Program-made: the position numbers and the translations under genes
Notes under the pieces: model-generated
What the model was told of the DNA's origin: nothing
Databases searched by the model: none
What the model saw: the letters and a program-made list of their open reading frames with translations, nothing else
In this document: positions 1 to 64,000 of the stretch, one piece after another
Layout of the letters: every line of letters begins with the position of its first letter
How positions within the stretch are numbered: position 1 is the stretch's first letter
Virus record (IMG/VR): IMGVR_UViG_3300047323_000545
Direction: 5' to 3' (one strand)
Source: a virus
Length of the DNA: 64,000 nucleotides

Positions 1-25
1 GATGGCGGTCAGAGGAGGCGGAGGC

Positions 26-865
26 TCAGGCGGCGAGCCCGGTCTTGACGGTGCAGCGGGTGGCGGGGCACTTGCGGGCCTTGGCGCCGCCGGGGCAGCA
101 GGCGACGGGCGGCGGGGTCCCGGCGTCTACGTGGGCGAGGACGGTGCGGTACTTCGCCTCCAGGCGGGCGATGTACAGGTCGTCGCGGGGGATGGTGAAC
201 TCGCGCATCACCCAGCCCTCGCTCATGGCGAGGAAGAGGATGAGCGCCTTCTGCTTGCCGGTGCAGGCCATGTACTCCTGGGCTTGGCCGTAGTACTTCG
301 GCCACTTGATCTTGAAGGCGTCGAGGTCGTTGTTGTCGATGTGCCTGATCACCGGCGGGGCGCAGGTCTTGAGGTCGAAGATGCCGTCGCCGGGCTCGCA
401 CCAGCCAGGGATGTCGAGCAGGCCGTCCATGTGGCCGCGTCGGCGGAGGCGGTCGTCGCGGACGCCCCACTCGTCGCACTTGCCGTTGCCCTTGCCGTGG
501 GGCTTGCCGCAGCACACGCAGGTGCCCTTCGGGGGGACGAGCAGGCCGAGCTTGATCATGACGGTCTGGACGACCTCGTGCATGACGGTGCCCATGAGGA
601 CGCTCATCCGGGGCCCGTAGTCGAACTCCGGCTCGTCCCACTTGTCCGGCTGGGCGAGGTAGTAGTACAGCTGGCGCTCGTCCATGGTCGGGTGGGTCGA
701 GGGGTGGAACCAGCCGTCCGGCTCGCGCTTGGCGGCGTACGAGCGCAGGCGCACGACGAAGTTGGTGGGGAAGGCGCACTGCTGGATGGCGTTCTCGATG
801 AGCGGGATGAGCACCAGGTCGCTGCCGATGGAGCCGACCCGGCGGAAGGAGGGGGTGAACGTCAC
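26..865 (-). CDS. PD-(D/E)XK exonuclease, Cas4/RecB-like phage nuclease
   Basis: HPS...GTVMHE, GHMDG, DLKT, Q..EY motifs; Cys clusters CVCC..C and CC..C..C. Confidence 0.7.
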   Translation of the reverse strand: MTFTPSFRRVGSIGSDLVLIPLIENAIQQCAFPTNFVVRLRSYAAKREPDGWFHPSTHPTMDERQLYYYLAQPDKWDEPEFDYGPRMSVLMGTVMHEVVQTVMIKLGLLVPPKGTCVCCGKPHGKGNGKCDEWGVRDDRLRRRGHMDGLLDIPGWCEPGDGIFDLKTCAPPVIRHIDNNDLDAFKIKWPKYYGQAQEYMACTGKQKALILFLAMSEGWVMREFTIPRDDLYIARLEAKYRTVLAHVDAGTPPPVACCPGGAKARKCPATRCTVKTGLAA

Positions 866-1272
866 GTGGTCGGCCCTGTCTTCGTCTTCTCCGGGTACAG
901 CTCGACTACCTTGAGGGCTTTCGTCAGCATGGAGGCGGCTTGCAGCACCGTGAGTTCGTCAGTGCCCTTCGGCAGTCGCTCTCGGGCCAGTTCCAGGGCC
1001 AGCTCCTCGCGTGTCTTGGGCTTGGTCTCGGCCTTGTCGCTGCGGATCCAGGAGATCCAGTTCCAGGTGTAGACGCCGAACTTGACGGCGGCGACGGCGA
1101 GGAAGCCCCACTGGAGGGTGGCGAGCGAGTACGCGATCCAGACGGCCTGGGTGAACATCGCCCACAGCCAGCCCTTGGCGTTCTTCTTGCCGACGGCGCG
1201 CAGGGCGACCAGGCCGACCACGTCGAGGCTGGCGAGGATGTAGTTCCAGTCGTCTGCCATGTCAAGGTGCAT
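862..1272 (-). CDS. Small membrane protein (PnuC-like half-transporter pattern)
   Basis: Three hydrophobic segments, GWLW..F.Q..WI.Y pattern; overlaps the next gene by 4 nt. Confidence 0.45.
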   Translation of the reverse strand: MHLDMADDWNYILASLDVVGLVALRAVGKKNAKGWLWAMFTQAVWIAYSLATLQWGFLAVAAVKFGVYTWNWISWIRSDKAETKPKTREELALELARERLPKGTDELTVLQAASMLTKALKVVELYPEKTKTGPTT

Positions 1273-1286
1273 GATGAGGTCTCACT

Positions 1287-1924: not shown

Positions 1925-2334
1925 TCGGCGTGGCCCTTCCGGACGCAGACGAGCTTGGCGGGCTGGGGCCAGTGCCAGACCACGGTCATGTCCGGGATCG
2001 GCTGGTTGTGGCAGGCGCAGCGGATCGGCTCGTCGCTCTCGATGTAGATCATCTTCTCCGGCGGGTTGTCCGGGTCGACGGGCAGCGCTTTGGCCGGGCC
2101 GTACCGGCGGACGAGGTGGCTGGCGGTGATGCCCATGAAGGCGCCCAGGACGATGGCGGTCAGGGCGGCCATGATGCCGAGCTTGTAGTGGATGTCCTGG
2201 GAGATCTGGTTGAGGTCGACCTGCTGGCCGACCACGTACCAGGCGTAGGCGATGACGAGGGCGCACAGGCTCATGACGGCGTAGAAGAACCAGGGCTCTC
2301 CAGCGATGGCCCATGCGCGCTTGAGGCGGTTCAT
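1921..2334 (-). CDS. Membrane protein with two TM helices and a C-terminal Cys/His motif
   Basis: Two hydrophobic stretches; translationally coupled to recA. Confidence 0.6.
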   Translation of the reverse strand: MNRLKRAWAIAGEPWFFYAVMSLCALVIAYAWYVVGQQVDLNQISQDIHYKLGIMAALTAIVLGAFMGITASHLVRRYGPAKALPVDPDNPPEKMIYIESDEPIRCACHNQPIPDMTVVWHWPQPAKLVCVRKGHAE

Positions 2335-3458
2335 GCGGCTTCCTCCAGGATCTCGCCGGTGCTGGGGTCGACTCCGTCGGGGACGTCGTCGTAGGAGACG
2401 GTGTGGTCGGCCTTGACGTCACCGGAGATGGAGACGAGGGCCTTCTCCCGGATCACCTCGACCAGTTCGGGGCGCTCAGCGATGGCGGCCTCGACGCCGG
2501 GGCGTCCGCCCTTGACGGTGCTGCCGTCGGGGAACTCGTACGAGACGGTGGACAGGCGCTTGATGGCGCCGGTGGCGATGCCGAGGGTGATGGCTTCGTC
2601 GGCGCGGTCGATGCCGACGGGGCCGTACTTGTCGGTGGCGACGTTGCGGAACCAGAAGTCGGCCACGCGGCCCTGCGGGGCGAGCTTGTTGCGTTCGACC
2701 CGGGCGCGGATCTGGCGGGCGACTTCCAGCTCGGCTGGGGCCTTGGAGACGGCGTCGGTGATGGACACCTTCTTCGTCGGTTCGCCGGTCCGGCTCATCT
2801 TGATCTTCGTGGTGGTGTTGTACTTCAGGGCGCTCGGTCCGGCGGACTTCTGGCCGCCGCGCGGGTTGCCGATGTCGGCCCGGTACTGGTTCACGAAGAT
2901 CACGGCTGCGTTGTTCGCCCGGCACAGGCCCGCGACGCGCTTGACCATGCGGGAGATGACCTGGGAGTTCTTTCCCATGGCGGAGTCCTCTGCGCGCTTT
3001 TCGAAGGCGGCCTTGGACTCCATGCCGCCGACGGAGTCGACGGCGACGAGGGAGATTTCTCCATCTCGGAGGAACATGCTGATCTGGTCGGAGACGTCCT
3101 CGGAGTGGTCCGGGTAGATGTGGACGAACCGGTCTTCGTCGAGGTCCAGGCCGAGCTTCTCGGCCCACTCGAAGTCGAAGGACTGCTCCATGTCGATGAC
3201 CGCGACGCCCCGGTCGGGGAACATCCGCTGGGCGTCGACCATGGCGAGGATGCACTGGGTCGTCTTGCCCATGCCCTCGGGTCCGACGATCTCGTGAGTG
3301 CGCTTCAGGGCGAACCCGCCGCCGAGGGCGTAGTCGAGGGTGAGGCTGCCGCTGGATATGAAGGTGGGGCGGACCATCGCGTCGCGCCGGGTGACGCGGT
3401 CGCCGTAGACCTTGGTCAGGTCCGCGCGCAGCTTGGCGAGACGGCTCTTGGGAGGCAT
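2331..3458 (-). CDS. recA: RecA-family recombinase
   Basis: SGSLTLDYALG, Walker A GPEGMGKTT, VAVDSV, IFVNQYR, ALKY, RNKLAP; AAGGAG RBS before ATG 3458. Confidence 0.9.
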   Translation of the reverse strand: MPPKSRLAKLRADLTKVYGDRVTRRDAMVRPTFISSGSLTLDYALGGGFALKRTHEIVGPEGMGKTTQCILAMVDAQRMFPDRGVAVIDMEQSFDFEWAEKLGLDLDEDRFVHIYPDHSEDVSDQISMFLRDGEISLVAVDSVGGMESKAAFEKRAEDSAMGKNSQVISRMVKRVAGLCRANNAAVIFVNQYRADIGNPRGGQKSAGPSALKYNTTTKIKMSRTGEPTKKVSITDAVSKAPAELEVARQIRARVERNKLAPQGRVADFWFRNVATDKYGPVGIDRADEAITLGIATGAIKRLSTVSYEFPDGSTVKGGRPGVEAAIAERPELVEVIREKALVSISGDVKADHTVSYDDVPDGVDPSTGEILEEAA

Positions 3459-3533
3459 GGTGCGGGGTCTCCTTGCGGGGAGTAGCTGATGGCGGTCAGC
3501 TGTGGCCAATGGCGGTTGGCTCGATTTCGCAGC

Positions 3534-4183: not shown

Positions 4184-7100
4184 TCACAGGGGCTGGTAGG
4201 TGACGAGGGACAGGCCCCGGTCGTTCTTGCGGAGTTCGGCCAGGCAGAGGGCGCCCTTGGTGAAGCGACGCTGCTCGACGGCCCAGGCGTCGCGGAACAC
4301 GGCGACGCGGAGGGTGGACAGTTCGGTCTCCAGGGTCAAAAAGCCCATGTCGCCCGTCCTGTGCGGGCGGGCCCCGGCGACGATCGCGGCGACGTAGTAG
4401 GTGCCGTTGGGTCCTGCGGCCAGCTGCTCGGCCTGGGCACGGCAGACCGCGCGGTCGTTGGGGTCCAGGTCGTCGAACGGCGTACTGGAGAGGTAGGTGC
4501 CGAGCATCTCGTGCTCGATAGTCCGGATGTCCACGGGGCTGTAGGGCTCGACCGCCTCGATCTGCAGCGGCGGCGGCGCGGTGTACTGGCGGCACGCCTT
4601 GGTGCAGCGCTTGGGCAGCGGCTTGCGCTTGAGGGTCTTGCCGGTGCGCGGGTTGACCGGGGCGGGCTCGCTGGCCCAGTTGAAACTACAGGGCAGGGCC
4701 GTCGACTCGAACAGCTCGATCTTGTGGACGCAGCGGGCGTCCTCTTTGGTCTTGGCAGCCAACAGCTTGGCCTCCAGTCCGCGCCGGTTGCTGACGAGCG
4801 TGTCGAAGGCGCCGATGCGCGCGAGAAGGGCGACGACGCCCGCGTTGGCCTTGGGGCTCTTGCGGGTCTCGAAGTCCTCCCAGGAGGCGTACGGCTGGGT
4901 CTCGACGAGGGCCTTGACGGCGACGTCGCCGACGCCCTTGACGGAGCCGAGGCCGTAGCGGACGGCGTACTGCTCGGGGTCGGCGGTGAAGCCGGGGCCG
5001 GAGGTGTTGATGTCCGGGGGGAGTACCTCGACGTCCAGGCGCCGGGCCTCCTTGACGAACTCGGGGACGCGGTCCTTGTCGACGGTGGACATGGCGGAGA
5101 CGAGGAACTCGCGGGGGTAGTTGACCTTGAGGAACGCGGTCCAGAACGCGAGGAACGCGTAGGCGTAGGCGTGGCTCTTGTTGAAGCCGTACTTGGAGAA
5201 CTCGGCCATCTGGGACCACAGGCGCTCGGCCTGCTCGCGGGGTATGTCGACGCGGGAGAGGAACTCCTGCCCGGCGTCAGCGATGGCGGAGATCTTCTTC
5301 TTGCCCAGGATCCGGCGGACGCCGTCGGCCTCGGACTCGTCGTACCCGGCGAGGAGCTGTGTGACGGCCATGACCTGCTCCTGGTAGATCATCGCGCCGT
5401 AGGTGGGGGCGAGGACCTTCTCCAGGCGGGGGTCGGGGTAGGTGACGGCCTGTTCGCCCGCGCGGCGGCGCAGGTAGAGGTCGGTCAGGCCGGAGTTCAT
5501 CGGGCCGGGCCGGACGATCGTCACCATGTCGGCCAGCTCGGCGACGTTGCGGGGGCGCATGCGCTCGCACAGGCGGGTTCCGGAGTGGGTCTCGATCTGG
5601 AAGACACCGACGGTGTGGGCGGCCTGCAGCTCCTCCCAGACCAGGGGGTCCTCGAACTCGACCTCCCACGCCTCCAGGTCGATCTCGTACCGGCGCTGCT
5701 CGCGGACCAGGTCGAGGGTCTCCTGGATGGTGTCCAGGGTGCGCAGGGTGAGGATGTCGAACTTGACCAGGCCGATCGCCTCGACGTCACCCATGGCCCA
5801 CTGGGTGACCATCTGCTCTTCGCCGTCGATGGTGCGCATCGGCAGCCAGTCGGTGAGCGGGGCGCCGGTGGAGATAACCACCCCGGCCGCGTGGCGGCCG
5901 TAGGACTTCAGGCGGCCGACCAGACGCTCGGCCATGGCGAACAGCTCGGGGTAGCGGTCGGCGAACGGCTGCAGCTGCTCGCCGTGCTGGACCCAGAGGT
6001 CCTCCCAGGACATGCCGAGCCCGGCGGTGCCCGCTTCGGCCTCGTCGATCAGGGCGGAGACCTGGCGCAGGTCGGCCGCCGCGCCCTCGGGGAGGGAGGA
6101 CGCCAGCGCGCGGACCAGCTCGTTGATGACGGCCTTGTTCTTCAGGCGCAGCTCGGAGCCGATGGAGACGACGTTGCGCTCGCCCCAGCGCTCGCGGAGG
6201 TAGCCGAGGATATGGGCCTTCTTGCTGGCGGGGAAGTCGACGTCGAAGTCGGGCAGGCCCGCACGGCCGCGCGTCAGGAAGCGCTCGAAGAGGAGGTCAT
6301 GCTTGACCGGGTCCAGCGAGGTGATGCGGGCGAGGTAGGCGACGAGGGAGCCGCCGCCGGAGCCGCGTCCGGGGCCGACCAGAATGCCGTGGTCCTTCGC
6401 CCAGCCAACATAGTCCGCGACCATCAGGTAATAGCCACAGAACCCTTTGTCGACAAGTAGCTCCATCTCCCTCGCGTACCGGTCTCGGTAGACCCGCTCG
6501 GTGTCGGAGAAGTCCTGGGCGTTGGCGGGCAGTCGGTTCCAGTTGTCCAGGCACAGCTCGCGCAGGCGCCGCTCGTCCTCGGCCGGGTCACCAGTGAAGG
6601 ACGGCGTGGTCGTCTCGCCCTCGATCCGGGCGTCGCAGCGCTCGGCCAGCGCCCGGGTGTTTGCGATGGCCTCCTCAACGACGTCCTGGCCGAGGTAGGC
6701 GAGCCCGGCGCGGACCTCGGCTTCGCCCATGACGTAGAGGTTCAGGTCCTCGGCGAAGAGGTCGCCTTCGTCCTGGACGTCCTTGTTGGTCTGGCAGGCG
6801 ATCCAGACGTCGTGGGCGTGGGCGTCGTCGGCGGTCGGGAAGTGGGAGTCGACGGTGGCCAGCAGCGGCAGGTTGAACTCGCGGGCCAGGGCGACCAGGG
6901 CCGTGTTGAGCTTGACCTGGTCGGGCATGTCGTTGGGCTGCAGCTCGACGTACAGGCGGCCGGGGAACAGGTCCATGAGCCGGGTCAGGCGCTGGAGGGC
7001 CAGGTCGGCGTCGCCGTTCTTGATGGCGACGGCCACCGGGCCGCGCAGGCAGCCGGTGGAGGCGATGACGCCCTCGCTGAACCGGCCGAGGGTGTCCCAG

Positions 7101-7861
7101 TCCATGCGGGGCCGGTAGTAGAGGCCGTCGCGGAAGGACTCGGTGCTGGCTGCCCAGATGTTGCGCAGGCCGGTGTTGTCCATGGCGAACAGGCAGACGT
7201 GCCAGTAGTCGTTGCGAAGGCTGGCCTGCATCTCCTTGTCACCCGGCTCGGCGCGGATGACGCGGTCGTCGCACAGGTACGCCTCGATGCCGAAGATCGG
7301 CTTGACCCCGGCCTTGTCGGCGGCACGCTGCAGCTCGGGGTGTCCGGCGCAGGTGCCGTGGTCGGTGATGGCGACGGCGCTCTGGCCGTGGCGGGTGACC
7401 TCACGGAGGATTTCGTCCATGCGGGACAGGCCGTCGAGGGGGCTGTACTCGCTGTGGGTGTGCAGGTGCACGAACCCGCCGGGGCGAGTGCCGGGTGGGC
7501 TGTCGAGGGCTTCGAGCTGGTCGAGGACCTCGTGGTAGGTGGGGATGCCGTCCTCGTCGTCGAAGATCGCGGAGCGGCTGTAGGCGAGGCACAGCCTGTC
7601 GCTGCCGAGGTCTTGTTCCTCGACTCGGTGTGCCGGGACGGCAGTGACACCGTCCTCCAGCGCCTCCATGACTCCGGCCGCGCCGTCGTTCAGTGCGCGG
7701 CGCCATGTCAGGTGGGTGACGATGACGGGCGCGGCAGCGGGGACGAGCAGCCAGCGGGTGCCGTCTTCCTCGTGCTCGACGAGTGCGGGAAGCTGGGCGC
7801 GAAGTTCGCCAACCTGCACATAAGGGGCGTCAGGTGCGTAGGAGCTGATGAGGCGCAGCAC
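4184..7861 (-). CDS. dnaE: DNA polymerase III alpha subunit with ~130-aa N-terminal extension
   Basis: PHP motifs HLHTHSEYS, TDHG, DSH; GPGRGSGGGSLVAY; PDFDVDF; KFDIL; YGFNKSHAYAY; C-terminal OB fold; AAGGA RBS before GTG 7861. Confidence 0.95.
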   Translation of the reverse strand: MLRLISSYAPDAPYVQVGELRAQLPALVEHEEDGTRWLLVPAAAPVIVTHLTWRRALNDGAAGVMEALEDGVTAVPAHRVEEQDLGSDRLCLAYSRSAIFDDEDGIPTYHEVLDQLEALDSPPGTRPGGFVHLHTHSEYSPLDGLSRMDEILREVTRHGQSAVAITDHGTCAGHPELQRAADKAGVKPIFGIEAYLCDDRVIRAEPGDKEMQASLRNDYWHVCLFAMDNTGLRNIWAASTESFRDGLYYRPRMDWDTLGRFSEGVIASTGCLRGPVAVAIKNGDADLALQRLTRLMDLFPGRLYVELQPNDMPDQVKLNTALVALAREFNLPLLATVDSHFPTADDAHAHDVWIACQTNKDVQDEGDLFAEDLNLYVMGEAEVRAGLAYLGQDVVEEAIANTRALAERCDARIEGETTTPSFTGDPAEDERRLRELCLDNWNRLPANAQDFSDTERVYRDRYAREMELLVDKGFCGYYLMVADYVGWAKDHGILVGPGRGSGGGSLVAYLARITSLDPVKHDLLFERFLTRGRAGLPDFDVDFPASKKAHILGYLRERWGERNVVSIGSELRLKNKAVINELVRALASSLPEGAAADLRQVSALIDEAEAGTAGLGMSWEDLWVQHGEQLQPFADRYPELFAMAERLVGRLKSYGRHAAGVVISTGAPLTDWLPMRTIDGEEQMVTQWAMGDVEAIGLVKFDILTLRTLDTIQETLDLVREQRRYEIDLEAWEVEFEDPLVWEELQAAHTVGVFQIETHSGTRLCERMRPRNVAELADMVTIVRPGPMNSGLTDLYLRRRAGEQAVTYPDPRLEKVLAPTYGAMIYQEQVMAVTQLLAGYDESEADGVRRILGKKKISAIADAGQEFLSRVDIPREQAERLWSQMAEFSKYGFNKSHAYAYAFLAFWTAFLKVNYPREFLVSAMSTVDKDRVPEFVKEARRLDVEVLPPDINTSGPGFTADPEQYAVRYGLGSVKGVGDVAVKALVETQPYASWEDFETRKSPKANAGVVALLARIGAFDTLVSNRRGLEAKLLAAKTKEDARCVHKIELFESTALPCSFNWASEPAPVNPRTGKTLKRKPLPKRCTKACRQYTAPPPLQIEAVEPYSPVDIRTIEHEMLGTYLSSTPFDDLDPNDRAVCRAQAEQLAAGPNGTYYVAAIVAGARPHRTGDMGFLTLETELSTLRVAVFRDAWAVEQRRFTKGALCLAELRKNDRGLSLVTYQPL

Positions 7862-7989
7862 GGTGGTGGTCCTTGCGCGTGGAGGGTGGTGAAGGTTGAC
7901 CGGGCCGCCCCGGGGAAGAACGCAGCGCTGAAACGCTGAGCGCCGTATCTGACGGCACCGGGGCGGACCGGTGTCTGTGTGCGCCTGGA

Positions 7990-9932: not shown

Positions 9933-9966
9933 TCACCCCTTGGGCCGCCCGGGGCGACTCAGACAG
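9933..9966 (-). promoter_or_regulatory. Bipartite motif CTGT-N21-AAGGGGTGA (putative late promoter, copy 1 of 14)
   Basis: Exact consensus match upstream of the 47-aa ORF and J-like gene. Confidence 0.6.
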
Positions 9967-11062
9967 CGCACCGGCCGGGATGCACGACCTGGAAGCAGAG
10001 GTGGCAGTAGAGGACCTTCGGCTTCTCCCAGACCTGCCAGGGCACCGCGTACTCGTTGACGAGGACGTCGTACAGCGCATCGGACATCTCGGCGGGGTCA
10101 GCAGCGAAGGGGCTCTGCACGACCCAGTTCTGGCACCAGGCGGAGGCGCGCTGCGGGGCACCAGGGAAGAACTTGCCGTTGTAGGTGCGGCCTGCGACGG
10201 CGCGCCATCCGGCGTCGTCGTTGTCCATGAACCAGATGAGCTTCTTGCGGCCTCGCACCAGGTGCTCGATCTGCTCGTCGGTGACGACGGCGCCGAAGGT
10301 TCCCTCGATGTTGCTGTGGTGCTGGTGGCGGAGCTGACTCATGGGCGACTCGACGACGACGACCTCGTGCCGCAGGAACTCGCGGCCGAAGATCGTCTCG
10401 TCGCGAGGGAAGCCGGGGGTGCTCAGGTACTTCGGTGCGCTCGGGTCGGCAGCGGGCAGGCGGCGGGACTGCCAGCCGACGAGCTGGCCTTCCCAGTAGT
10501 GCGGGATGACGGCGCGCGGGCCGGTGCGCACCCGGGCCTCGGGCGGTCCCATGAAGCCGTCGGGGTCGAGGCAGATGCCCATCCGCTCGCAGGTCTCGAT
10601 CGGGATGCCGCGCTCGCGGGTGATGTAGTCGGGGACGCCCTGCCAGCGCTCCAGCATGCGGGGGCTGTAGACCGGCATCGGCGGCCGGGACTTCGGCGTG
10701 TAGAGGGCGTCGAAGAAGGCGAGCATGTCGGGCAGGCCGACGGCGCGGGTGAGTCCGGCTTCGCCGAGGAGCCATTCGCGGGCCTCGTCGATGGTGGTGT
10801 CGCCGCGCACCGTGGCGATGAGCCACAGGATGGTGCCGCTGGAGTCACATCCGAGACAGTGGAACAGCAGCTTCGAGGCCGACAGGGCGGCGGTGGGGTT
10901 GCGCTCCTGGTCGTTGTGGAAGGCCCCGACCGGGCACGGGATGATCAGCTCGTCGCGGACCTGTCGCTTGACCTGGATGCCGAGGGAGTCGAGGACGTCC
11001 TTGGCGATCTGGGCCTTGTGCTCGTCGGGGAGCGCGGTGAGCTGGTCGAGGTCAGTCGTCAT
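9959..11062 (-). CDS. DNA primase (zinc finger + TOPRIM)
   Basis: CP...H...HCLGC zinc finger, PKYLS, VVVES, FMDNDDAG. Confidence 0.8.
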   Translation of the reverse strand: MTTDLDQLTALPDEHKAQIAKDVLDSLGIQVKRQVRDELIIPCPVGAFHNDQERNPTAALSASKLLFHCLGCDSSGTILWLIATVRGDTTIDEAREWLLGEAGLTRAVGLPDMLAFFDALYTPKSRPPMPVYSPRMLERWQGVPDYITRERGIPIETCERMGICLDPDGFMGPPEARVRTGPRAVIPHYWEGQLVGWQSRRLPAADPSAPKYLSTPGFPRDETIFGREFLRHEVVVVESPMSQLRHQHHSNIEGTFGAVVTDEQIEHLVRGRKKLIWFMDNDDAGWRAVAGRTYNGKFFPGAPQRASAWCQNWVVQSPFAADPAEMSDALYDVLVNEYAVPWQVWEKPKVLYCHLCFQVVHPGRCAV

Positions 11063-11351: not shown

Positions 11352-11953
11352 GCGGCGACCTTCGATTCCTTCTGGGAAGCGCGCTCGGCCGCGCGCTGGA
11401 CGCGGTGCGCCTCGCGGCAGGTGCACTCCGGGTGCGGGGCGAGCTGGAGTTCGTTCTTCTTGAAGTGCGCGCGGTAGCCGCGTTCGGTGCCGCAGATGGG
11501 CCGCAGGGGGGCCTGGAAGAGGCTGACGCGGCTGCCGGGGATCTCCTCGTACTGCTGCTGCTCCTCGGCCCGCCTGGCGGCTGCTGCGGCCTTCTCCTTG
11601 CGCTTGCGCTCCTCGGCGGCCTCCTTGTACGCCTGCTGGCGGGCGTTGTGGGCCAGGCGGCAGGGCTCGCAGTCCTCGCCCGCGTCATTGTGACGGCGGT
11701 AGGCCATCTCGCTTTCGCAGTCCGGTGGGAGAAGGTCGGCTTCGGTGATGCCGAGGGCAGCCCAGCGCTCTCCCTGGGTCTCTCCGCCCCAGATGCCCCA
11801 CTCGCGGCCCTCGCGGCCAGCACGACGGCAGGCCAGCTCCACGGGGCAAGTGCCGCAGATCCGCAGGGCCTTGCGGGCGGCCTTGGTCTCGCGTGTCTTG
11901 CCGGTGTCGAACAGCTCGGGCTGGACGGCGCAGGGGAAGGCGTAGGCGGTCAC
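11348..11953 (-). CDS. whiB: WhiB-family Fe-S transcription factor with two extra C-terminal Cys/His modules
   Basis: C...C..C.....C plus GIWGG; then CESEMAYRRH..CEPC and CGTERGYRAH..CTC. Confidence 0.85.
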   Translation of the reverse strand: MTAYAFPCAVQPELFDTGKTRETKAARKALRICGTCPVELACRRAGREGREWGIWGGETQGERWAALGITEADLLPPDCESEMAYRRHNDAGEDCEPCRLAHNARQQAYKEAAEERKRKEKAAAAARRAEEQQQYEEIPGSRVSLFQAPLRPICGTERGYRAHFKKNELQLAPHPECTCREAHRVQRAAERASQKESKVAA

Positions 11954-13254
11954 AGGGTCACCTCGCCGAGGACGTGCTGGGTGCCGTACCAGGGCTCCCA
12001 GGCGCAGCGCCAGTTGGTCAGGTCCATGCGTCGGGACGCGAGCATTTGAAGGGTGGCCATACCGGCAGCGACCTCGGTTTCTGAGCGGATGAGGCCGAAC
12101 ACCCAGGAGCTGTAGCGCTCGATCGCCGAGGAGTCGGCGATGTGCTGCATCTCCAGTCGTCCGGCCTTCTGGGCGGCGGCGACGCCCTCACGGTTGATCT
12201 GGCAGTTCAGGAGCACCGACGGCATGTAGCGGCCGGTGGTGATGAGCGTGGACAGCTCGTTCATCAGCTCGGCGATCGTTTCGTGCTTGGGCCGCCGGGG
12301 GTTGGGGTTGGGGTGCTGGATGTGGGAGAGCTGGTCGATGATGATCGACTTCGCCCCGTAGGACTGGGCCTGGCGGATGAGGGCGGCGGGGGTGCGCAGG
12401 CCGTCGTCCGGGGAGAGGACGTGCAGGCCGTCCTTCAGGTCCTGCTCGTTCTCGGCGAGCCAGGTGCGGACTCGGTCGACGTCCTCAGCGGCGGCCGTGC
12501 CCTTCTGGTACTCGCGGTAGTCGACGCAGCAGATCTGGCAGGCGAGCCGGTCGTACGTCATCTGCACGCTGTTCTCCAGCGTGTAGAGGACGGTCTCCCG
12601 GTCGCGCCGCCACTCGGTGTTGGCGACGTGGGTGGCGCTGAACGACTTGGCACCCTTGGGCGGGGCGCACCAGGCGCAGATCTCGCCCCCGTGGACGCCG
12701 AGGGTGTGATTGTCGACGGCCTCCATCCCGAGGGACATGCCGGTGACGACCTTCGGTGCGGCGGCGCGCTGGTCGTAGCGGGCGAGGGAGTCGCGCAGTC
12801 CCTGGACGCCTTCGACCTCGTTCTGCCGGTTGCGGACCGACATGGAGAGGCCGTGGAAGGCGGCGGCGGCCTGGTGGACGGCCTCGACGCGTTCGTGCGG
12901 CTCGGCGTTGGCCATCGCGACGGCGGCCTCGCGCTGCAGGCGCTGGGACTCGGCCAGGACGTACTGGCTCTGCAGGTACTCGATCGCCGCGAAGACCTCG
13001 TCGACTTCGAGGTCCTCGTCCGGCAGGACGATGTTGCACTGCTCCAGCCGGTGTCCCCACTGCTCCTGCAGGAGTTCGCGGGAGGGCGCCTTGGTGCGGC
13101 CGGAGCGGTAGAAGTAGGAGACCGTCCACTCGACGACGTCGCGCATGCCGGTCGTCGGGATGCACGCCGGGTCCAGGCCTGTGTCGGCCAGCTGCTCCAG
13201 CGCGTCTACGTCGGTGAGGCTGGCGTAGAGGACGGTCTCTGCGTGCATGGTCAT
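11950..13254 (-). CDS. DnaB-like replicative helicase
   Basis: Variant P-loop APPKGAKS, YTLEN, IIDQL, CQINR, SSAIE; located in the primase/loader cluster. Confidence 0.8.
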   Translation of the reverse strand: MTMHAETVLYASLTDVDALEQLADTGLDPACIPTTGMRDVVEWTVSYFYRSGRTKAPSRELLQEQWGHRLEQCNIVLPDEDLEVDEVFAAIEYLQSQYVLAESQRLQREAAVAMANAEPHERVEAVHQAAAAFHGLSMSVRNRQNEVEGVQGLRDSLARYDQRAAAPKVVTGMSLGMEAVDNHTLGVHGGEICAWCAPPKGAKSFSATHVANTEWRRDRETVLYTLENSVQMTYDRLACQICCVDYREYQKGTAAAEDVDRVRTWLAENEQDLKDGLHVLSPDDGLRTPAALIRQAQSYGAKSIIIDQLSHIQHPNPNPRRPKHETIAELMNELSTLITTGRYMPSVLLNCQINREGVAAAQKAGRLEMQHIADSSAIERYSSWVFGLIRSETEVAAGMATLQMLASRRMDLTNWRCAWEPWYGTQHVLGEVTL

Positions 13255-14111: not shown

Positions 14112-14960
14112 TCATACCGCCGTGATGGGTCGGGCCAGGCCGAGTTCGGCTTCCTGGCGGGAGAGTTCGCGTCGCACCGGCCGGTAGTCGGTGCCGGGGA
14201 TCTCGATGAAGTCGGCGGACTCGCTGAGCAGGCTCATCGCGTAGACGCCGTAGCCCTGCTGGATCTCCTGGGGAGATCGGTTACTGGTGATGATCGTGGG
14301 CGCGGCATCGGAGACGCGGGCGCGGATGATGCGGTCGACCATGTCCTCGACTACGTCGATCCGGCCCTTGTTCTCTTTGCCCATGTCGTCCATGGCGAGG
14401 ACGTCCACGTTGCGCACGCGGCGCGTCCAGTGCTCGCGCTCGTCCTTGTCGCGCCAGGTGGAGGTGAAGAGGTCGATGACGTCGTTGAACTGCGAGAAGT
14501 GGGCCTGAAATCCGTTGGCCATGAGGAACTTGCACAGCAGAGCGAGGAAAAGCGTCTTGCCGGTGCCGGGGTCCTTGGACCAGAGGATCAGGTTGCGTCC
14601 GGTGGCTATGTTGCGGGCCGCCTGGAGGGCGTAGCCCATGACCTGTTCAACGATGTGCTGCGGAACAGTCTTGATGTCGTCCCAGCCCAGGCGCTGGTAG
14701 TTCATTGGGATGCCCGCGTTGAGGAACCACAGGTGCATGAGCCACTGGTCGCGGCAGTCGCACTCGTAGGTGACGACCTCCTCCGTGCGGCGGTTTGCGG
14801 CGTCGTCGGCGTACCAGCGGTAGGTGTTGCTGTCCCGCTTGAGGCAGGTCAGGCAGGTGTCCTTGGGGCTGGTCCATAGGCGGGGGCGGACGGCCTTGAG
14901 CCGGTCGAAGTCCGGGTTGGACAGCGGCTGGCAGGACGGAGGAGGCGGAGGTCGTTTCAA
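14112..14960 (-). CDS. DnaC/IstB-like AAA+ ATPase (helicase loader)
   Basis: CxxC...CxC, PGTGKT, LAMDDMGKE, TIITSN, GTDYR; AAGGA RBS before TTG 14960. Confidence 0.8.
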   Translation of the reverse strand: MKRPPPPPSCQPLSNPDFDRLKAVRPRLWTSPKDTCLTCLKRDSNTYRWYADDAANRRTEEVVTYECDCRDQWLMHLWFLNAGIPMNYQRLGWDDIKTVPQHIVEQVMGYALQAARNIATGRNLILWSKDPGTGKTLFLALLCKFLMANGFQAHFSQFNDVIDLFTSTWRDKDEREHWTRRVRNVDVLAMDDMGKENKGRIDVVEDMVDRIIRARVSDAAPTIITSNRSPQEIQQGYGVYAMSLLSESADFIEIPGTDYRPVRRELSRQEAELGLARPITAV

Positions 14961-15007
14961 GGTGGCGGTCCTTGATGAAGGCCCAGTGGCGGCCGGGCGG
15001 TGGTAGA

Positions 15008-38398: not shown

Positions 38399-38433
38399 TC
38401 ACCCCTTGAGGGCGAGAGGAAGGCGCCGCACAG
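38399..38433 (-). promoter_or_regulatory. Putative late promoter CTGT-N22-AAGGGGTGA
   Basis: Exact consensus. Confidence 0.65.
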
Positions 38434-38439
38434 CAAAAG

Positions 38440-48889: not shown

Positions 48890-48902
48890 CGCTCGCTCCT
48901 GG

Positions 48903-49406
48903 TCAGCGCAGTCGGGTGGAGTGCGTGTAAGCGGCGACCACAGGCTTGGCGACGTCCAGGCCGCCGACCGTCAGGGTGTCGCCGTCGGCGATGTCGACGA
49001 TCGTCACGTTGTGATAGATCTTGCCGCGCCACTTCGAGGGGGTCGCCTCGGTGCCGGGCGGCTTGATGATCGTCTGCGCCGTCACGTAGTTCGGACTTCC
49101 GGCCAGCCGGTCGAAAATCTCGACGATGTTGTTCGTGCCAGACAGCCCGGCCAGCTGCTCCCAGATCGCCTGGTTCCACAGCTCCTGGATCGTCATCTGC
49201 AGCGTGCCGCCGCCCAGGACGCGGGACGTCGCGATCTCCACCGGCGTACGCGAACCAAGGGGCTGAATAAACGCGTACGCCTGCCCCTTGTCGCTCCACG
49301 CACGCTGGCCCGAGTCCTCGACGCTGTTCAAGAACGCGATCGGCTTACCGGCGTACACGAACGTGCTGTAGCCGGAGCCGGTGACGCGGACCTTGCCTGC
49401 AGGCAT
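48903..49406 (-). CDS. Tail tube protein
   Basis: 167 aa, directly after the sheath; beta-rich. Confidence 0.7.
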   Translation of the reverse strand: MPAGKVRVTGSGYSTFVYAGKPIAFLNSVEDSGQRAWSDKGQAYAFIQPLGSRTPVEIATSRVLGGGTLQMTIQELWNQAIWEQLAGLSGTNNIVEIFDRLAGSPNYVTAQTIIKPPGTEATPSKWRGKIYHNVTIVDIADGDTLTVGGLDVAKPVVAAYTHSTRLR

Positions 49407-49467
49407 TGCTCACCACCCCATCCGTAGGTCTCACCCACTGGTGCGGGATGGGCGGCCACGGACAGCA

Positions 49468-49501
49468 GAGGACCCCCGGCGCCCTCACACCGGGGGTCCT
49501 C
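49468..49501 (-). terminator. Hairpin after the sheath gene
   Basis: 12-bp stem GAGGACCCCCGG/CCGGGGGTCCTC. Confidence 0.5.
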
Positions 49502-49546
49502 CATAAAGCGCGGCAGGGGCCCGTCACAAGCGCCTGCCGCGCGGGC

Positions 49547-51073
49547 TCAGGCGGCCTGGTCTGTCTGCGTGGACGTGTCGCCGGTCGTGAGGTCGACGGC
49601 GAACTTCACGACGACATAGTTCATCGGGATCGGCGGCTTGTAGCTGAAGGTCCCCTCGATGACCGACGGGTCCGCCGACTGCTGCCGCACCTGCGCGTTG
49701 GCGTAGGAGACGATGATCGCGTCGGAAACCGCCTGCTCCAGCAGACCGATCAGCGCCGACTTCACGTTGATCGTGGTCTCGGCCGTGATCGGCTCACCGA
49801 TGAGCCCAGCGTTGGACATGCCGACCTGGATCATCTGCAGCAGGACGTCGCCGATGCGGGTCAGCGAGATCTCCTGCGTCAGGATCGACGACATGTTCGT
49901 GGACACGCCGTGCCGGGCGACCAGCTGGTTGTTCTGGTTGATCTCCGCGACGTTCACACCGGACTTCGAGAGGTTGTTCTTGAAGGTCCGCGTCATGGCC
50001 TGCGCGATCGTCGCGGGCAGGCCCGTGAACGACGTCAGCGACTGGTTCGTCAGCCCCCGCGCGACCGCGTTCCGCGCCAGCCGTCCGGCCATCGCAGCGG
50101 CCAGGTAGAAGCCGTCGATCTCCGTGGAGGCGTTCACGGCCGAGTTGAAGGCCAGCAGCCGGTTCGGGTAGCACAGCACCAGCCGCTTGCTGTCCTGCGC
50201 CAGCGCCAGCTGGTCGTGGCCGGTCGTGTTGTCGTACGTCGTGGCCAGGCCGGTGAACGCCATCCGGCCGTAGCCGTCGTTGGCCGCCGTCTCGCAGTGG
50301 TTCTTGACGTCGGCCAGCAGGTTCGCCACGTTCGTCGGCGTGTGCGCGTTGTACGTGCCGTCCACGAACAGCGGCACCAGGATCTGCGCCCGGTAGTCCG
50401 CCTCCAGCTTGCTGTACGCCGCCTGCAGCGCCGCCCGGTAGTCCGTCGCCGCCGGGTTGGTCGCTACGCACAGCACGCTGGCCGCGCCGTTCTCCAGAGC
50501 GATCTTCGCCGCCAGAGTCAGCGCCGAGGCGACCTGAGACGCGGTCGGGCTCGTCGGCGCGGTCGACAGCATGGCCTGCCCGTACGTGGCCACGACCTGG
50601 TCGTAGTCCTCGAACTCGGTCGGCTCGTAATACGTCGCGTTGGTGAACGCGTACGTCACCCGGACCTGGTCGCCGTCCTTCAGCCCGTTCGGCGACGGCT
50701 GAGTCAGGTCGCTCTGGCTCGACGACAGACGCTTGATCGAAGTGATCGCCGTGGCGGCACCACCGGAACCGGCGGTCACCACGAAGGTGTAGTCGGTGTT
50801 GTAGACCATGACCGTGCCCGACAGGGTCGTGACCACGGGCGCCGCGATGGCAGGCGGCCCCACAACCGCCGCGATGTACGCGCCACGCTGCAACAGTGCG
50901 GTCGCCGAGCCGGAGAAGACGGTGACGACCTCACTGGTCGTCTGGTAACCCAGGGCCGGGCCGATCACCGTGACGGTCGTGGTTGACACGCCGCGCGGGG
51001 TGACCGTGGGAGTCGATTCGTCGCTGACGTAGACGCCGGGCGGCGTGTACGTCGCAGAGGAGATGTCGGGCAT
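49547..51073 (-). CDS. Contractile tail sheath protein
   Basis: YTPPGVYV N-terminus, AAAMAG, RHGVST, EIS..R..D, YKPPIPMNYVVVKF C-terminus. Confidence 0.85.
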   Translation of the reverse strand: MPDISSATYTPPGVYVSDESTPTVTPRGVSTTTVTVIGPALGYQTTSEVVTVFSGSATALLQRGAYIAAVVGPPAIAAPVVTTLSGTVMVYNTDYTFVVTAGSGGAATAITSIKRLSSSQSDLTQPSPNGLKDGDQVRVTYAFTNATYYEPTEFEDYDQVVATYGQAMLSTAPTSPTASQVASALTLAAKIALENGAASVLCVATNPAATDYRAALQAAYSKLEADYRAQILVPLFVDGTYNAHTPTNVANLLADVKNHCETAANDGYGRMAFTGLATTYDNTTGHDQLALAQDSKRLVLCYPNRLLAFNSAVNASTEIDGFYLAAAMAGRLARNAVARGLTNQSLTSFTGLPATIAQAMTRTFKNNLSKSGVNVAEINQNNQLVARHGVSTNMSSILTQEISLTRIGDVLLQMIQVGMSNAGLIGEPITAETTINVKSALIGLLEQAVSDAIIVSYANAQVRQQSADPSVIEGTFSYKPPIPMNYVVVKFAVDLTTGDTSTQTDQAA

Positions 51074-51101
51074 GCCACCCACCAGTCGCGTCGGTCAGCT
51101 G

Positions 51102-59543: not shown

Positions 59544-60530
59544 CTAGGACTTAACGATCTTGGCCAAACCCCTGGGGTTCAAGATCAACATGGATACCAT
59601 CTCGTCGAAGACCCAGCCCTTCCAGAAGGACTCGACTCGGTGGTTTTCCTCGACGTCCAGCGAGTACAGGACCGGGAAGACACCCAGGAACTGCGGGTCC
59701 GGCGTCAGGAAGATCGTGTTCTGGGGGATGACGATCGAGCGCTGGATCTGGAACTCGCCGAACGAGGTGATCGTCTCGCCCGCGACGACGCGGTCCTTGA
59801 ACGCCCAGCCGGTCTGGTTGATGTCCCACCGGTACATGTCCCGGTAGTCCATCGGGTTGATGAGGATGCGGCTGGACTGCAGCTCGTGCATGTCCGTCAT
59901 GGAGACGGCCGAGTACAGCGAGCCCGGGGTCAGGTAGCCGCTGGCTTCCGTGATGACGTGGTTCGGGGTGACCGTGTGGTCGGCCCGGCCCGCGTAGTCG
60001 GAGATGGCGGCCTGCAGGATGGTGACGAGGCGGCTGTCCTCCTGCTTGAGGATGGCCTGCTTGGTCTCGTCCTGGGCCTGCTCGACCGCGTTGATGCGGA
60101 GGTAGAGCAGGTCTTCCTTGCGGATGGCCGGGCGCGAGGCGATGCGGAAGAAGCGCACCTGGATGCGCTTGCCTTCGAACGGCGTGATGCGGACTTCGCC
60201 GTCCGTGCCGGACATGATGTACGCCTGTCCGAGGTCGTCCCAGACGTCGTACTCGACCGGGGTACCGGGGGTGCAGGGGTCCTCGACGAGGACGTTGCGG
60301 GTGATGCCCTGGTATCGGAGCTTCAACTGGATCGGGCCGATCATGCCCACGCCGAGGCGCTTGATCCCGTTGACGGAGTCGGAGGCGACGGCCTGGAGGC
60401 GCTGGCGCTTGGCCTCGAAGGAGAGCGGCTGGTTGCCACGAGACTCGCGACGGGCGAGGATCTCGGAGACGTAGTCGTCCGACTTCTTCGCGGTGCGAAC
60501 GTGGCCGGTGGCGGCGGGCGCTGCGGTCAT
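59544..60530 (-). CDS. Major capsid protein (Bxz1/cluster C-like, recognised from memory)
   Basis: SDDYV, RLG..MIGPIQL.LRYQGI.RNVL.ED, RITPFEGKRI, KEDL.YLR, QEDSRL; GAGAGG RBS before ATG 60530. Confidence 0.85.
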   Translation of the reverse strand: MTAAPAATGHVRTAKKSDDYVSEILARRESRGNQPLSFEAKRQRLQAVASDSVNGIKRLGVGMIGPIQLKLRYQGITRNVLVEDPCTPGTPVEYDVWDDLGQAYIMSGTDGEVRITPFEGKRIQVRFFRIASRPAIRKEDLLYLRINAVEQAQDETKQAILKQEDSRLVTILQAAISDYAGRADHTVTPNHVITEASGYLTPGSLYSAVSMTDMHELQSSRILINPMDYRDMYRWDINQTGWAFKDRVVAGETITSFGEFQIQRSIVIPQNTIFLTPDPQFLGVFPVLYSLDVEENHRVESFWKGWVFDEMVSMLILNPRGLAKIVKS

Positions 60531-61236: not shown

Positions 61237-61244
61237 TTGGGGGG

Positions 61245-62117
61245 TCAGTCGAACAGGTCGGAGACCTCGTCGGTGCCCGCGAGCGGGGCCGCAGAGGCGG
61301 TCGCGTGGGCCGCCAGGGACGGCGCTACACGCTCTGCGCTGCGGGCCGCGACCCGGGCGCCCGACGGCGCGGTCCGGGCGGAGGCGGCCTTCATGACGCG
61401 GTCCAGGACGCCGATCTCACGGTTGATCAGCTCGTCGGAGAGGCTGGCGTCGGACTCCAGGCGTGCGGACACGGTGAGGTCGTCGCCGCTGGCGATACCG
61501 GCCTGGATCTGCAGGCGGGCCAGGCGCAGGCACGCGTGCGTGCGCGACGGACCACCGCTGGCACCGGCCATCTCACCCGTAGTCACCGGGTTGGAGTTGG
61601 ACTTGTTCTCGCTCATCGTCCAGGGGAAGGCGACGTCCCACTGGGCCGGGTCGCCGACGCGTACGTCGGTTTCGATGCGGGTCTCGTCCAGCGGGACCTC
61701 ACCGGTGTTGACGCCGGAGACCGGGGAGGTGACGTCCTGCAGGTTGCCGTACGGCTCGGCAGGGAGGGTGCCTCCCGGGGTGAGCGCGGTGTCGGTCGCT
61801 GCGGCCGGGACACCGGCGGTGGAGTTGCCGGTCTGGCCCGGGGAGCGGACGTCGTCGTTGGTCTCGGGGGTCGCGGCCTGCTCGGTCGTCTCCGACGGGG
61901 CCTGCTCCGGCCCGTCCGGGATCGGCTGGGCGGGGTTGGCGATGTCGGCCGTCTTGGAGAGGGCTTCGACCTCGCCGGTGACTCCGGCCAGCCGGGCGAT
62001 CAGCGCGATCTGCTTCCCCTGGACGGCGAGCTGCTGAGACTGGGCGGCCAGCTGCTTGCGCTGGTCGTCGATGACCAGCTGCTGGGCGGTCAGCGCTGCC
62101 ATGAGCGGTCGGCTCAT
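61245..62117 (-). CDS. Scaffolding-like protein
   Basis: AAGGAG RBS; acidic disordered centre, helical C-terminus; upstream of capsid. Confidence 0.55.
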   Translation of the reverse strand: MSRPLMAALTAQQLVIDDQRKQLAAQSQQLAVQGKQIALIARLAGVTGEVEALSKTADIANPAQPIPDGPEQAPSETTEQAATPETNDDVRSPGQTGNSTAGVPAAATDTALTPGGTLPAEPYGNLQDVTSPVSGVNTGEVPLDETRIETDVRVGDPAQWDVAFPWTMSENKSNSNPVTTGEMAGASGGPSRTHACLRLARLQIQAGIASGDDLTVSARLESDASLSDELINREIGVLDRVMKAASARTAPSGARVAARSAERVAPSLAAHATASAAPLAGTDEVSDLFD

Positions 62118-62181
62118 ACTGGACACTCCTTCAAAGCCTGTGGCGCTCACGACGGCTGCCGTGGGCGGGGTCTTCACTGCT

Positions 62182-64000
62182 TCAGGTGCGCGGGAGCTGC
62201 GGGACAGCAGGCGGGGGGACAGAAGACTTGCCCTGCAGTTCTGCGGGGGTCAGCAGCTGCGCCTTGTTGCAGTTCGGGCAGACGTCCCCGGCGACGATGC
62301 CGTCGGTCGCGCCTGCCGCGTTGCCCATGTCCTGGGTCTGCGGTGCGGTCGCGTCCGCTCCGAACCCGCAGTGCAGGCAGTTCAGGTCCGGCACGCCGTC
62401 GCTGGGCTGGCCGTCCTTCGGCGTGCGCGGGGCCATCACGCTGAAGCGTCGGCGACGTGGGTCGTCCGGCTCCTCGGCCTGCTCCGGTCCCGGAGCCTCG
62501 TCGGACACGTCCCGGTTCCAGGACCAGTGCGGCGTCTCACTCTCGTCGCCGGTGTAGTCGCCGGGGTGCGCCAGGATCGGCTCCTGCGGAGACCCCATAC
62601 CGGGGCCCTGGAAGCCACTGTCGTCATCGTCTTCCTGCAGGCCGCCTTCGGGACCCTCAGGCCCCTGCATACGCGGCATGTCAGGGCCGGGGGTGAACGG
62701 GTCTCCCATGCGGTCCGTGGCGCGGCCGGGCAGCTCGCGCGGGCCTGCCTGGCCGCCCTGTTCCGGGTCGACCAACTGCGGCTGGGCGTTGACGTTGCCG
62801 TCCGGGTCGATCTCGTCCGGCTGGATCATGCCGTCGCCGTTGCGGTCGGAGACGGCCGGGCCCATCTGCTGGGTGCCGTCGAGCGCCTGGTCGCCGAACG
62901 GGGACGGCGGCAGGCCGTTCTCGTCGAGCTGGTCGGGGTCGACCATCTGCGGGTCGTCCTCGTCCAGCGGCTGCCCGTCGGGGCCCAACTGCTCCTCGCC
63001 GGGCTCCTCGCCCTGCTGCGGCATGCCGGTGCCGTCGTCGTTGACGCGCTGCAGTTCGCCGTTGTTGTCGACCAGGGAGGGGTCGACGATCTGCTTGCGC
63101 AGGTCGAGCTGCTTGGCCTTGTCCAGGTCCGGGTCGCGGAACTGCTCCGGCGGGTTGATGAACCCGCAGATCTGGCACTGGATCCCGTCGAAGGTGTCCT
63201 TGTCGCCGCAGACCGGGCAGTTCTCCTCGCGGAGCGTGTCGACGTCGGCCGGGGCCTTGATCTCCCCGTACGCCAGCGCGCTGATGGATCCATCGGCGTT
63301 GATCATGACGGCGTCAACCACCTTCGCCACGTGGGAGTTGCCCTGCTCCTTCAGCTCCGGCGCGTGCTCGCCCGCAAAGCCCTTCCAGTGGCCCTTGATG
63401 TTCTCCTCGGCCTTGTTACGCCCCGCGCCCAGGTTCTTGGCGCTGGCGTTCGCGTTGGCCTGGTCCTCGGCGGTGTTGAGGCGCTGGCGCACCAGCCAGG
63501 TCACGGCCTGCACCTGGTGTGCGGCGACCGGCTTGCCCTCCTTCTCGGAGATGGCGGCGGCGGCGTTGCGGTAGGTGTTGGCGGCGTGCTCGTAGTAGTG
63601 CCGGGCGTGCTTGCCGCTCTGGGCGCCAGGGAAGCCCTGGTGGGCGTCGTTCTCGACGTCGGTGATCCGGCGCCCGGCCGCCACGGACAGTGCGTGCCGG
63701 TCGACGACCACCCGGCCGGACAGCCGACGCTCGGCGCCGGACTTCTTCTCCTCGTCGGTCTGCGGTTCGTAGCCGCCGTGCTCGATGAGGTGCGCGAAGT
63801 CCTGGGTCTTCGGTGCCTTCAGGACCGGCTGGTGGTGCTCGCCGTCCATGATGCGCTGCGCCTTGTCGGCGTGCATGCCCATGGTGACGGTGTGCGCGGG
63901 CTTGTCCGGGTCGTCCTTGAGCGGCCGGACGGCCGCCTGCCGGTGGAAGGAGTGGGCCGCGTTGAACATGTTCATCGGCCAGTTGGTGCGCGGGCTGTAG
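62182..64000 (-). CDS. C-terminal part of a large multidomain head protein (HhH-glycosylase-like domain, two zinc ribbons, acidic linker); 5' end outside the window
   Basis: Frame open to the window end (YSPRTNWPMN); VVVDRHA and QVQAVTW; CPVC..CQIC; CLHC..CPNC. Confidence 0.6.
   Translation of the reverse strand, partial: YSPRTNWPMNMFNAAHSFHRQAAVRPLKDDPDKPAHTVTMGMHADKAQRIMDGEHHQPVLKAPKTQDFAHLIEHGGYEPQTDEEKKSGAERRLSGRVVVDRHALSVAAGRRITDVENDAHQGFPGAQSGKHARHYYEHAANTYRNAAAAISEKEGKPVAAHQVQAVTWLVRQRLNTAEDQANANASAKNLGAGRNKAEENIKGHWKGFAGEHAPELKEQGNSHVAKVVDAVMINADGSISALAYGEIKAPADVDTLREENCPVCGDKDTFDGIQCQICGFINPPEQFRDPDLDKAKQLDLRKQIVDPSLVDNNGELQRVNDDGTGMPQQGEEPGEEQLGPDGQPLDEDDPQMVDPDQLDENGLPPSPFGDQALDGTQQMGPAVSDRNGDGMIQPDEIDPDGNVNAQPQLVDPEQGGQAGPRELPGRATDRMGDPFTPGPDMPRMQGPEGPEGGLQEDDDDSGFQGPGMGSPQEPILAHPGDYTGDESETPHWSWNRDVSDEAPGPEQAEEPDDPRRRRFSVMAPRTPKDGQPSDGVPDLNCLHCGFGADATAPQTQDMGNAAGATDGIVAGDVCPNCNKAQLLTPAELQGKSSVPPPAVPQLPRT

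Follow-up and report, generated by a model that had tools for sequence, protein, structure and literature searches.

A probable circular phage-plasmid of Streptomyces combines a Bxz1-type phage backbone with putative partition and winged-helix modules

Introduction

Can a genome built on the plan of the Bxz1-type myoviruses live as a plasmid and, if so, which of its genes would keep it there? The question is raised by a 64,000-nt stretch of viral DNA (IMG/VR record IMGVR_UViG_3300047323_000545; hereafter the window), in which the genes of a contractile-tailed phage are interrupted by two islands of plasmid-like genes. A first-pass annotation of the window had proposed a Bxz1-like myovirus maintained as a plasmid and equipped with two separate replication toolkits. 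Comparison with related elements leads us to conclude, with a probability of roughly 0.8, that the window (68% G+C) represents about 40% of a ~155-kb circular Streptomyces phage-plasmid, in which a Bxz1-type backbone is joined to partition and winged-helix modules. Its closest relatives are circular plasmids of cultured strains and, judging from these sequences, the element very probably belongs to a new group of phage-plasmids. Phage-plasmids as such are well known. For this lineage we found no published description beyond one entry in a 2023 survey of actinobacterial prophages, which lists the relative pRLB1-9.1 as a 100% predicted prophage plasmid, a “remnant” and a singleton cluster. Two other papers that name pRLB1-9.1 do not describe it as a phage or use the words phage or prophage.

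Results and Discussion

Plasmid residence of the closest relatives

Genes were called from the G+C content of codon positions (GC3), and domains were assigned by Pfam and PHROGs scans of the open reading frames (ORFs) of the window. A set of 50,697 phage records served for protein and DNA comparisons in all phage searches. Six elements were compared: the window and five full-length relatives (pRLB1-9.1, A0642, cg35, MH60 and NPDC021080). The window is colinear, at 89-98% nucleotide identity, with pRLB1-9.1, a closed circular plasmid of 154,158 bp from Streptomyces sp. RLB1-9. This molecule has been handled as a circular plasmid in laboratory crosses and is dispensable; it disappeared from two-thirds of the recombinants of its host (PMC11571958). 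The other four whole elements (151-157 kb) are colinear with the entire window as well; cg35 is also a closed plasmid, and the ends of the MH60 and NPDC021080 contigs overlap, as is typical of circular molecules. The A0642 contig (G002:C16) wraps across the partition (par) locus and ends exactly at the tandem palindromes found there, which suggests that the repeats caused a break in a circular molecule.

The lineage extends well beyond these elements. We found 51 homologues of its winged-helix gene, and those on long contigs come from at least 18 isolates, on Streptomyces contigs of 150-158 kb; a viral contig collection includes 239 related contigs. Winged-helix homologues also occur on two longer contigs, JBEZLN010000005.1 (303,881 bp) and another of 309,833 bp. 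Their lengths come very close to two units, and each could be a dimer, a co-integrate of two elements or an artefact of assembly. Between 65 and 100 kb, pRLB1-9.1 holds variable cargo that includes an ATP-grasp pair for a ribosomally synthesised and post-translationally modified peptide (RiPP), two tyrosine recombinases and a regulator set (XRE/DUF5753 and DUF397). Of these, the XRE regulator recurs in each of the five full-length elements (41-51% identity).

The two tyrosine recombinases are not common to the five full-length elements, and these elements therefore have no conserved integrase. An integrated prophage was ruled out by this lack of a shared integrase and by the absence of chromosomal flanks from every relative. 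Extrachromosomal upkeep, as proposed in the first-pass annotation, is instead supported through the relatives, by the closed replicons pRLB1-9.1 and cg35, the circular overlaps, the wrap at the par locus and the missing integrase.

A virion and replication backbone shared with Bxz1-type phages

The backbone points to the Bxz1-type, or cluster C, phages. The major capsid protein matched 229 phage records, of which 209 belong to mycobacteriophages. It is 59% identical to its counterpart in over 200 cluster C phages, Rizal among them, and identity to Gordonia and Rhodococcus relatives is similar. Sheath identity to cluster C and related phages is lower (27-33%), and the DNA polymerase III alpha subunit (DnaE) is 30% identical to Rizal gp201 across 1192 aa. 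In tblastn searches, 22 of the 63 window ORFs matched Rizal in perfectly colinear order, in a run that comprises the giant head protein, capsid, sheath, tube, hub, baseplate, fibre, DnaC, DnaB, primase, DnaE and RecA; most of these proteins are 24-35% identical. The capsid relationship proposed in the first-pass annotation is thus borne out by both identity and synteny.

A megablast search with positions 1-25000 of the window gave no nucleotide match to the phage records, and each of the five whole elements has 0-1 tRNA genes versus the ~30 annotated in Rizal; a tRNA scan of the window itself found none. By its shared capsid and tail proteins and its gene order, the element can be classed as Bxz1-like at the family level. 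The missing nucleotide match, low protein identities, Streptomyces host and lack of the ~30 tRNA genes place it outside the Bxz1-type genus and cluster.

Two plus-strand islands that accompany plasmid residence

GC3-based calling assigned every credible gene to the minus strand except three (21204-22448, 38985-39779 and 39779-40759), in agreement with the earlier description of minus-strand genes interrupted by two plus-strand islands. The minus-strand genes form a replication and recombination module (~1-24.5 kb) and a virion module (24.6-64 kb), as delimited by Pfam and PHROGs matches. We found both islands in each of the eight Streptomyces-resident elements examined (the window, its five full-length relatives and two viral-collection records). 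Both are absent from Rizal, Phrappuccino and four environmental relatives, where the same searches did recover the positive controls. The four environmental genomes are complete, end in direct terminal repeats and encode capsids ~80% identical to that of the window. Rizal has neither an integrase nor ParA. Across the lineage, the winged-helix gene co-occurs strictly with ParA. This distribution therefore describes one chassis with three lifestyles, in which the pair of islands goes hand in hand with plasmid residence. Maintenance functions (ParA, its partner, palindromes and a winged-helix gene of a plasmid family) are found alongside virion genes, the latter in the window and, for the portal, protease domain and endolysin, in a near-identical relative.

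The putative partition island

The island at 39.0-40.8 kb, first described as parA with a partner and palindromes, was confirmed in each of its parts. The first gene (38985..39779, plus strand) encodes a ParA ATPase of 264 aa with Pfam matches to AAA_31, MipZ and CbiA and a deviant Walker A motif, KGGTGKT; its translation reads LKGGTGKTT and fits the type I deviant KGGxxK[ST] motif. A one-base overlap joins it to the gene of a 326-aa partner protein (39779..40759, plus strand), which has no Pfam match. The structural model of the partner combines a disordered N-terminus, devoid of the N-terminal ParB/Srx domain, with a helical, putative DNA-binding domain that appears to resemble those of ParB, KorB and SopB. 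The best fold matches of this domain were the DNA-binding domains of KorB, SopB, Spo0J and P1 ParB, at modest Z scores (5.8-7.0), and Foldseek returned a weak match to Noc (E = 0.5). The partner family is confined to this lineage, and neither ParA nor the partner matched any of the phage records.

Directly after the partner stop codon lie two identical 23-bp palindromes, 37 bp apart (40765-40787 and 40802-40824), the second of which is followed by a run of T. They are essentially confined to the par locus and are candidates for the centromere, parS, because their sequence changes with the type of par cassette, as a centromere predicts, although their position and doubling stay constant. Three cassette types occur among the six elements. 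Window ParA is 85% identical to that of NPDC021080 and only 42% identical to that of pRLB1-9.1, even though the flanking genes in the latter are 96-99% identical. Such cassette exchange between near-identical elements would be expected under selection for new incompatibility groups. The cassette occupies a slot between the hub and baseplate genes in which Rizal and Phrappuccino carry minor tail genes. A partition role for the cassette is well supported by inference.

The winged-helix island

The second island (20.4-22.9 kb) had been annotated as a Rep-like gene with repeats. The gene and conserved 22-bp repeats are there; the Rep-like designation found no counterpart in the databases. The gene (21204..22448, plus strand) encodes a tandem winged-helix protein of 414 aa with Pfam matches to HTH_20, IclR and MarR. 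In an AlphaFold model (mean predicted local distance difference test score, pLDDT, of 77.5), a helical N-terminal domain is followed by a first winged helix (WH1, residues 120-192), a disordered linker and a second winged helix (WH2, residues 224-296), a tandem architecture as in the iteron-type initiators RepA, RepE and pi. An atlas look-up with the N-terminal half of the protein returned unnamed or winged-helix clusters only. The gene lies between two stretches (0.96 kb and 0.5 kb) that show no coding signal. The upstream stretch (20239..21203) separates it from a divergent DinG-like helicase gene and contains a single ORF (20357-20941), which is not conserved in the relatives; this non-coding region is a candidate regulatory or origin region. 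Cumulative GC skew showed no origin or terminus pattern.

The best evidence for function comes from plasmids. The gene had no match in the phage records, and homologues at 28-34% identity are present in single copy on 27 large plasmids of Streptomyces, Kitasatospora and Rhodococcus, within 7 kb of parA in 6-7 of the 10 inspected. Single-copy occurrence on large plasmids, mostly beside parA, points to a role in plasmid replication or maintenance, for which the protein is a candidate. On four large linear Streptomyces plasmids (L136, L139, L140 and L150) we observed a recurring order of parA, small ORFs, an ORF of ~850 aa and a winged-helix gene of ~445 aa. This arrangement may represent a replication-partition core of giant linear plasmids that has gone unrecognised.

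The repeats are organised into two composite sites. Site L (21786..21860) lies inside the winged-helix gene, where it encodes the disordered linker, and consists of two inverted 22-bp arms around an asymmetric spacer of ~30 bp. Its inverted copy, site R (22792..22865), lies in the 0.5-kb non-coding stretch downstream and is perfect over 46 nt. The four arms thus form two 74-bp sites with a 46-nt perfect inverted repeat, which is far above chance expectation and is kept in five of the six elements. The linker and site L are both missing from the MH60 subgroup, which points to a function at the level of the DNA. A scan with the strict site pattern retrieved three viral contigs only. Inversion of the segment between the 74-bp sites would, in silico, cut the winged-helix ORF to 216 aa; the segment has a single orientation in all six elements, and an invertible switch at these sites is unsupported.

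Virion module

The earlier description of a complete contractile-tail virion module holds for the sheath, tube, chaperones, hub, baseplate, fibres and capsid, all of them on the minus strand of the window. Completeness does not: the portal, the N-terminal part of the protease and the endolysin fall past the window end, as judged from pRLB1-9.1, and no terminase was recognised. The HK97-fold major capsid protein (59547..60530) matches phrog_2522 (4e-107). Only the C-terminal two-thirds of a giant head protein with DUF7178 (62182..64000) fall within the window; its pRLB1-9.1 homologue is 1158 aa long, with a prohead-protease-like domain at the start (phrog_2774, phrog_18299). The tail genes at 45756..51082, placed by PHROGs and by their correspondence to Rizal gp122-127, comprise a candidate tape measure (728 aa), overlapping tail assembly chaperone ORFs, the tail tube (48903-49406) and the tail sheath (49547-51082; phrog_2839, 2.5e-59). 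An NlpC/P60 virion hub protein (41065..43596; Pfam; phrog_2810, 8e-103) matches Rizal gp131. Beyond the par island, the baseplate genes (35196..38868) encode a DUF7297 protein, baseplate J and a gp25-like baseplate W (Pfam and PHROGs), colinear with Rizal gp139, gp135 and gp134.

The tail-fibre block (28459..35141; Pfam) holds two proteins with YadA-head repeats and a fibre of 1393 aa (30960-35141) that matches Rizal gp140. At its N-terminus the fibre carries a poly-gamma-glutamate hydrolase domain (Pfam, 1.5e-59), and together with the YadA-head repeats this domain suggests possible depolymerase and adhesin functions in host recognition. For a helix-turn-helix (HTH)/peptidase/membrane triad beyond the window end, the pRLB1-9.1 homologues gave just a weak M48 match (E = 0.0015). 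Beside thyX, a small ParB_N-like ORF and an HNH endonuclease gene (52585-53588) form an insertion missing from all five relatives. The adjoining thyX is just 76% identical to that of pRLB1-9.1, against 92-95% in its surroundings, and the insertion looks like that of a homing endonuclease with co-conversion. An Rfam scan of the window was empty.

Replication module

A replisome core is present on the minus strand, though not the full replisome claimed at first: no clamp, clamp loader or ligase was found in the window. The core includes a RecA-like recombinase (2331..3509; Pfam RecA, 1.7e-33), 34% identical to the Rizal RecA region, and DnaE (4184..7954; Pfam PHP, DNA_pol3_alpha, finger and HHH_6). 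The DnaE ORF is open to 8746, and its true start was placed near 7950 from the 1256-aa gene of pRLB1-9.1. A DnaG-like primase (9959..11062), with weak Pfam matches to Zn_ribbon_DnaG and Toprim, corresponds to the Rizal primase gp197, and a DnaB-like replicative helicase (11950..13254; DnaB_C, 3.5e-12) corresponds to gp195. The DnaC/IstB-like helicase loader (14112..15137; IstB_IS21, 7.6e-6) is 33% identical to gp194. Further along are a 5'-3' exonuclease of the FEN type (15774..16715; 5_3_exonuc_N, 1e-35), the DinG-like helicase that diverges from the winged-helix gene (18094..20238; Helicase_C_2, 4.3e-39) and a SNF2-family helicase (22956..24518; SNF2-rel_dom, 2.3e-21) that matches Rizal gp182. 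Genes for WhiB-like (11348-11953), LuxR-type HTH (13251-13490) and J-domain (9018-9767) proteins are scattered within the module; the LuxR-type gene was seen in the window and pRLB1-9.1 only.

Alternative explanations

Several observations weigh against a phage-plasmid with a replication protein in its winged-helix island, and they feed the rival explanations. The winged-helix protein matches no known Rep family in Pfam, which recognises only MarR/IclR-type winged helices; Foldseek and a wide structural search found generic MarR-type matches and no initiator fold; and scans near the gene found neither a DnaA-box cluster nor an AT-rich stretch. On the virion side, no terminase was recognised in the window or in pRLB1-9.1, the minor tail genes that Rizal and Phrappuccino carry in the par slot have no homologue in any Streptomyces element, and the 2023 survey labels pRLB1-9.1 a remnant. 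The main rival to a replication role for the winged-helix protein accepts the phage-plasmid and makes this protein the prophage repressor or master regulator. Plasmid replication would then begin at an RNA-based or host-dependent origin within the 0.96-kb region, the situation in most cluster A mycobacteriophages with parABS. The MarR/IclR-type matches by Pfam and fold and the lack of DnaA boxes and AT-rich DNA suit a repressor, as does a gene counter-oriented to the lytic genes in the classical manner, and the four 22-bp arms could be its operators; moreover, parABS prophages of cluster A mostly replicate without a Rep protein (PMC7157519). Yet a repressor does not readily account for single-copy homologues on 27 large non-phage plasmids, beside parA in 6-7 of the 10 inspected, for the strict co-occurrence with ParA within the lineage, or for two tandem winged helices instead of one. 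We regard the repressor as a tentative alternative, and consider that the winged-helix gene probably, but by no means surely, starts or controls replication in the plasmid mode.

The remaining rivals dispute the phage-plasmid itself. The element could be a decayed or domesticated phage-derived plasmid that has kept replication and partition but lost the ability to form infectious virions. The unrecognised terminase, the minor tail genes without homologues and the survey label agree with such decay, as do the lack of the tRNA set of cluster C and the absence of any isolated Streptomyces phage matching the element in our phage searches (DNA of positions 1-25000; capsid). However, the Rizal annotation names no terminase either, pRLB1-9.1 does have the portal, the protease domain and the endolysin, and 239 related contigs come from a viral contig collection. 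The structural and replication genes are also intact and colinear: each relative retains 50-58 of the 63 ORFs despite divergence down to 55-85% protein identity, and the genes are therefore under selection. The capsid, which is 99.7% identical to that of pRLB1-9.1 in protein but 92% in DNA, argues likewise against a decaying remnant, and we consider this explanation unlikely. Even less credible is a virulent or carrier-state phage that co-purified with Streptomyces cultures and uses its ParA cassette for another purpose. Cluster C relatives without integrase and ParA fit a lytic lifestyle, and complete environmental relatives with terminal repeats exist, but the relatives that look like free phages are precisely those without both islands. 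A co-purified phage is also hard to reconcile with at least 18 independent isolate assemblies, two closed plasmids and the tracking of pRLB1-9.1 as a plasmid through laboratory crosses. The evidence as a whole thus favours the phage-plasmid.

Proposed mode of maintenance and significance

In the phage-plasmid we propose, the backbone (head, contractile tail, baseplate, fibres and the DnaC-DnaB-primase-DnaE-RecA series) would derive from the same stock as Bxz1, cluster C and related actinobacterial myoviruses. ParA, its ParB-like, presumed centromere-binding partner and the two palindromes, set in the baseplate region, would segregate a low-copy plasmid prophage. The winged-helix gene, shared with large Streptomyces plasmids, would start or control replication in this state. 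On induction, the element's own helicase, primase and polymerase would take over together with the virion genes, so that Rep/Par would serve the plasmid state and the DnaE replisome the lytic one. The exchange of par cassettes among nearly identical elements probably determines their incompatibility groups. A more elaborate and improbable scenario starts from a lytic-type Bxz1 backbone that captured the rep-par core of giant linear plasmids of Streptomyces and thereby turned to plasmid lysogeny, with swapped par cassettes as incompatibility groups. Its initiator linker would hold, at the inverted 74-bp sites, an origin or a DNA switch, inversion of which would yield the 216-aa protein and turn plasmid replication off.

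The Bxz1-type phages are a large and well-studied group, and their backbone is found here in a plasmid-resident Streptomyces branch; the cluster C genome that we inspected, Rizal, lacks integrase and ParA. With the integrase-bearing Phrappuccino, three lifestyles on one chassis become available for comparison. The lineage is common, with at least 18 isolates and numerous contigs from soil, and therefore some 150-kb Streptomyces “plasmids” would be phages, which matters for studies of gene flow and for strain engineering. The rep-par pieces could supply low-copy vectors and compatibility groups for Streptomyces, and the winged-helix family may prove to supply giant linear plasmids with a replication gene that has so far gone unrecognised.

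Comparison with known systems

The prototype phage-plasmid is coliphage P1, a large myovirus maintained as a low-copy circular plasmid by a plasmid replicon and parABS that stand apart from its lytic replication functions. The Streptomyces element would resemble P1 in this separation and in the location of its candidate parS downstream of the ParB-like partner gene. The two are unrelated in sequence, and the element differs from P1 in its short ParA (264 aa), a partner without a recognisable ParB N-terminal domain, an initiator that is a candidate only and a lytic module that brings its own DnaE polymerase. Among Streptomyces elements, pZL12 and pSLE1 are described in PMC4487206 (citing Zhong et al., 2010) as both circular plasmid and phage, with ParA/ParB; they are ~86-90 kb in size, and no similarity to the capsid, ParA or winged-helix protein of the element was detected in plasmid and phage searches. 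Prophages of some cluster A mycobacteriophages carry a partition cassette in place of the integration cassette, and in those with RepA the repA gene is oriented opposite to the structural genes and parABS (PMC7157519). The cluster A parABS phages are ~50-kb siphoviruses, whose ParA and RepA are unrelated to the proteins of the element at the level searched.

The closest likeness is to phages with the same chassis. Bixzunavirus, or cluster C (Bxz1 and Rizal; Ceeclamvirinae), and the Gordonia and Rhodococcus myoviruses share with the element a genome of ~155 kb and the gene order from head to RecA. Compared with Rizal, the element stands apart by its 68% G+C, its Streptomyces host and its possession of a ParA cassette and a winged-helix gene, both of which Rizal lacks. 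Phrappuccino (cluster AA), reported to be temperate (PMC8263002), has a tyrosine integrase and no ParA, unlike the element, with which it nevertheless shares the capsid lineage (53.5% identity) and the order of the tail and replication genes.

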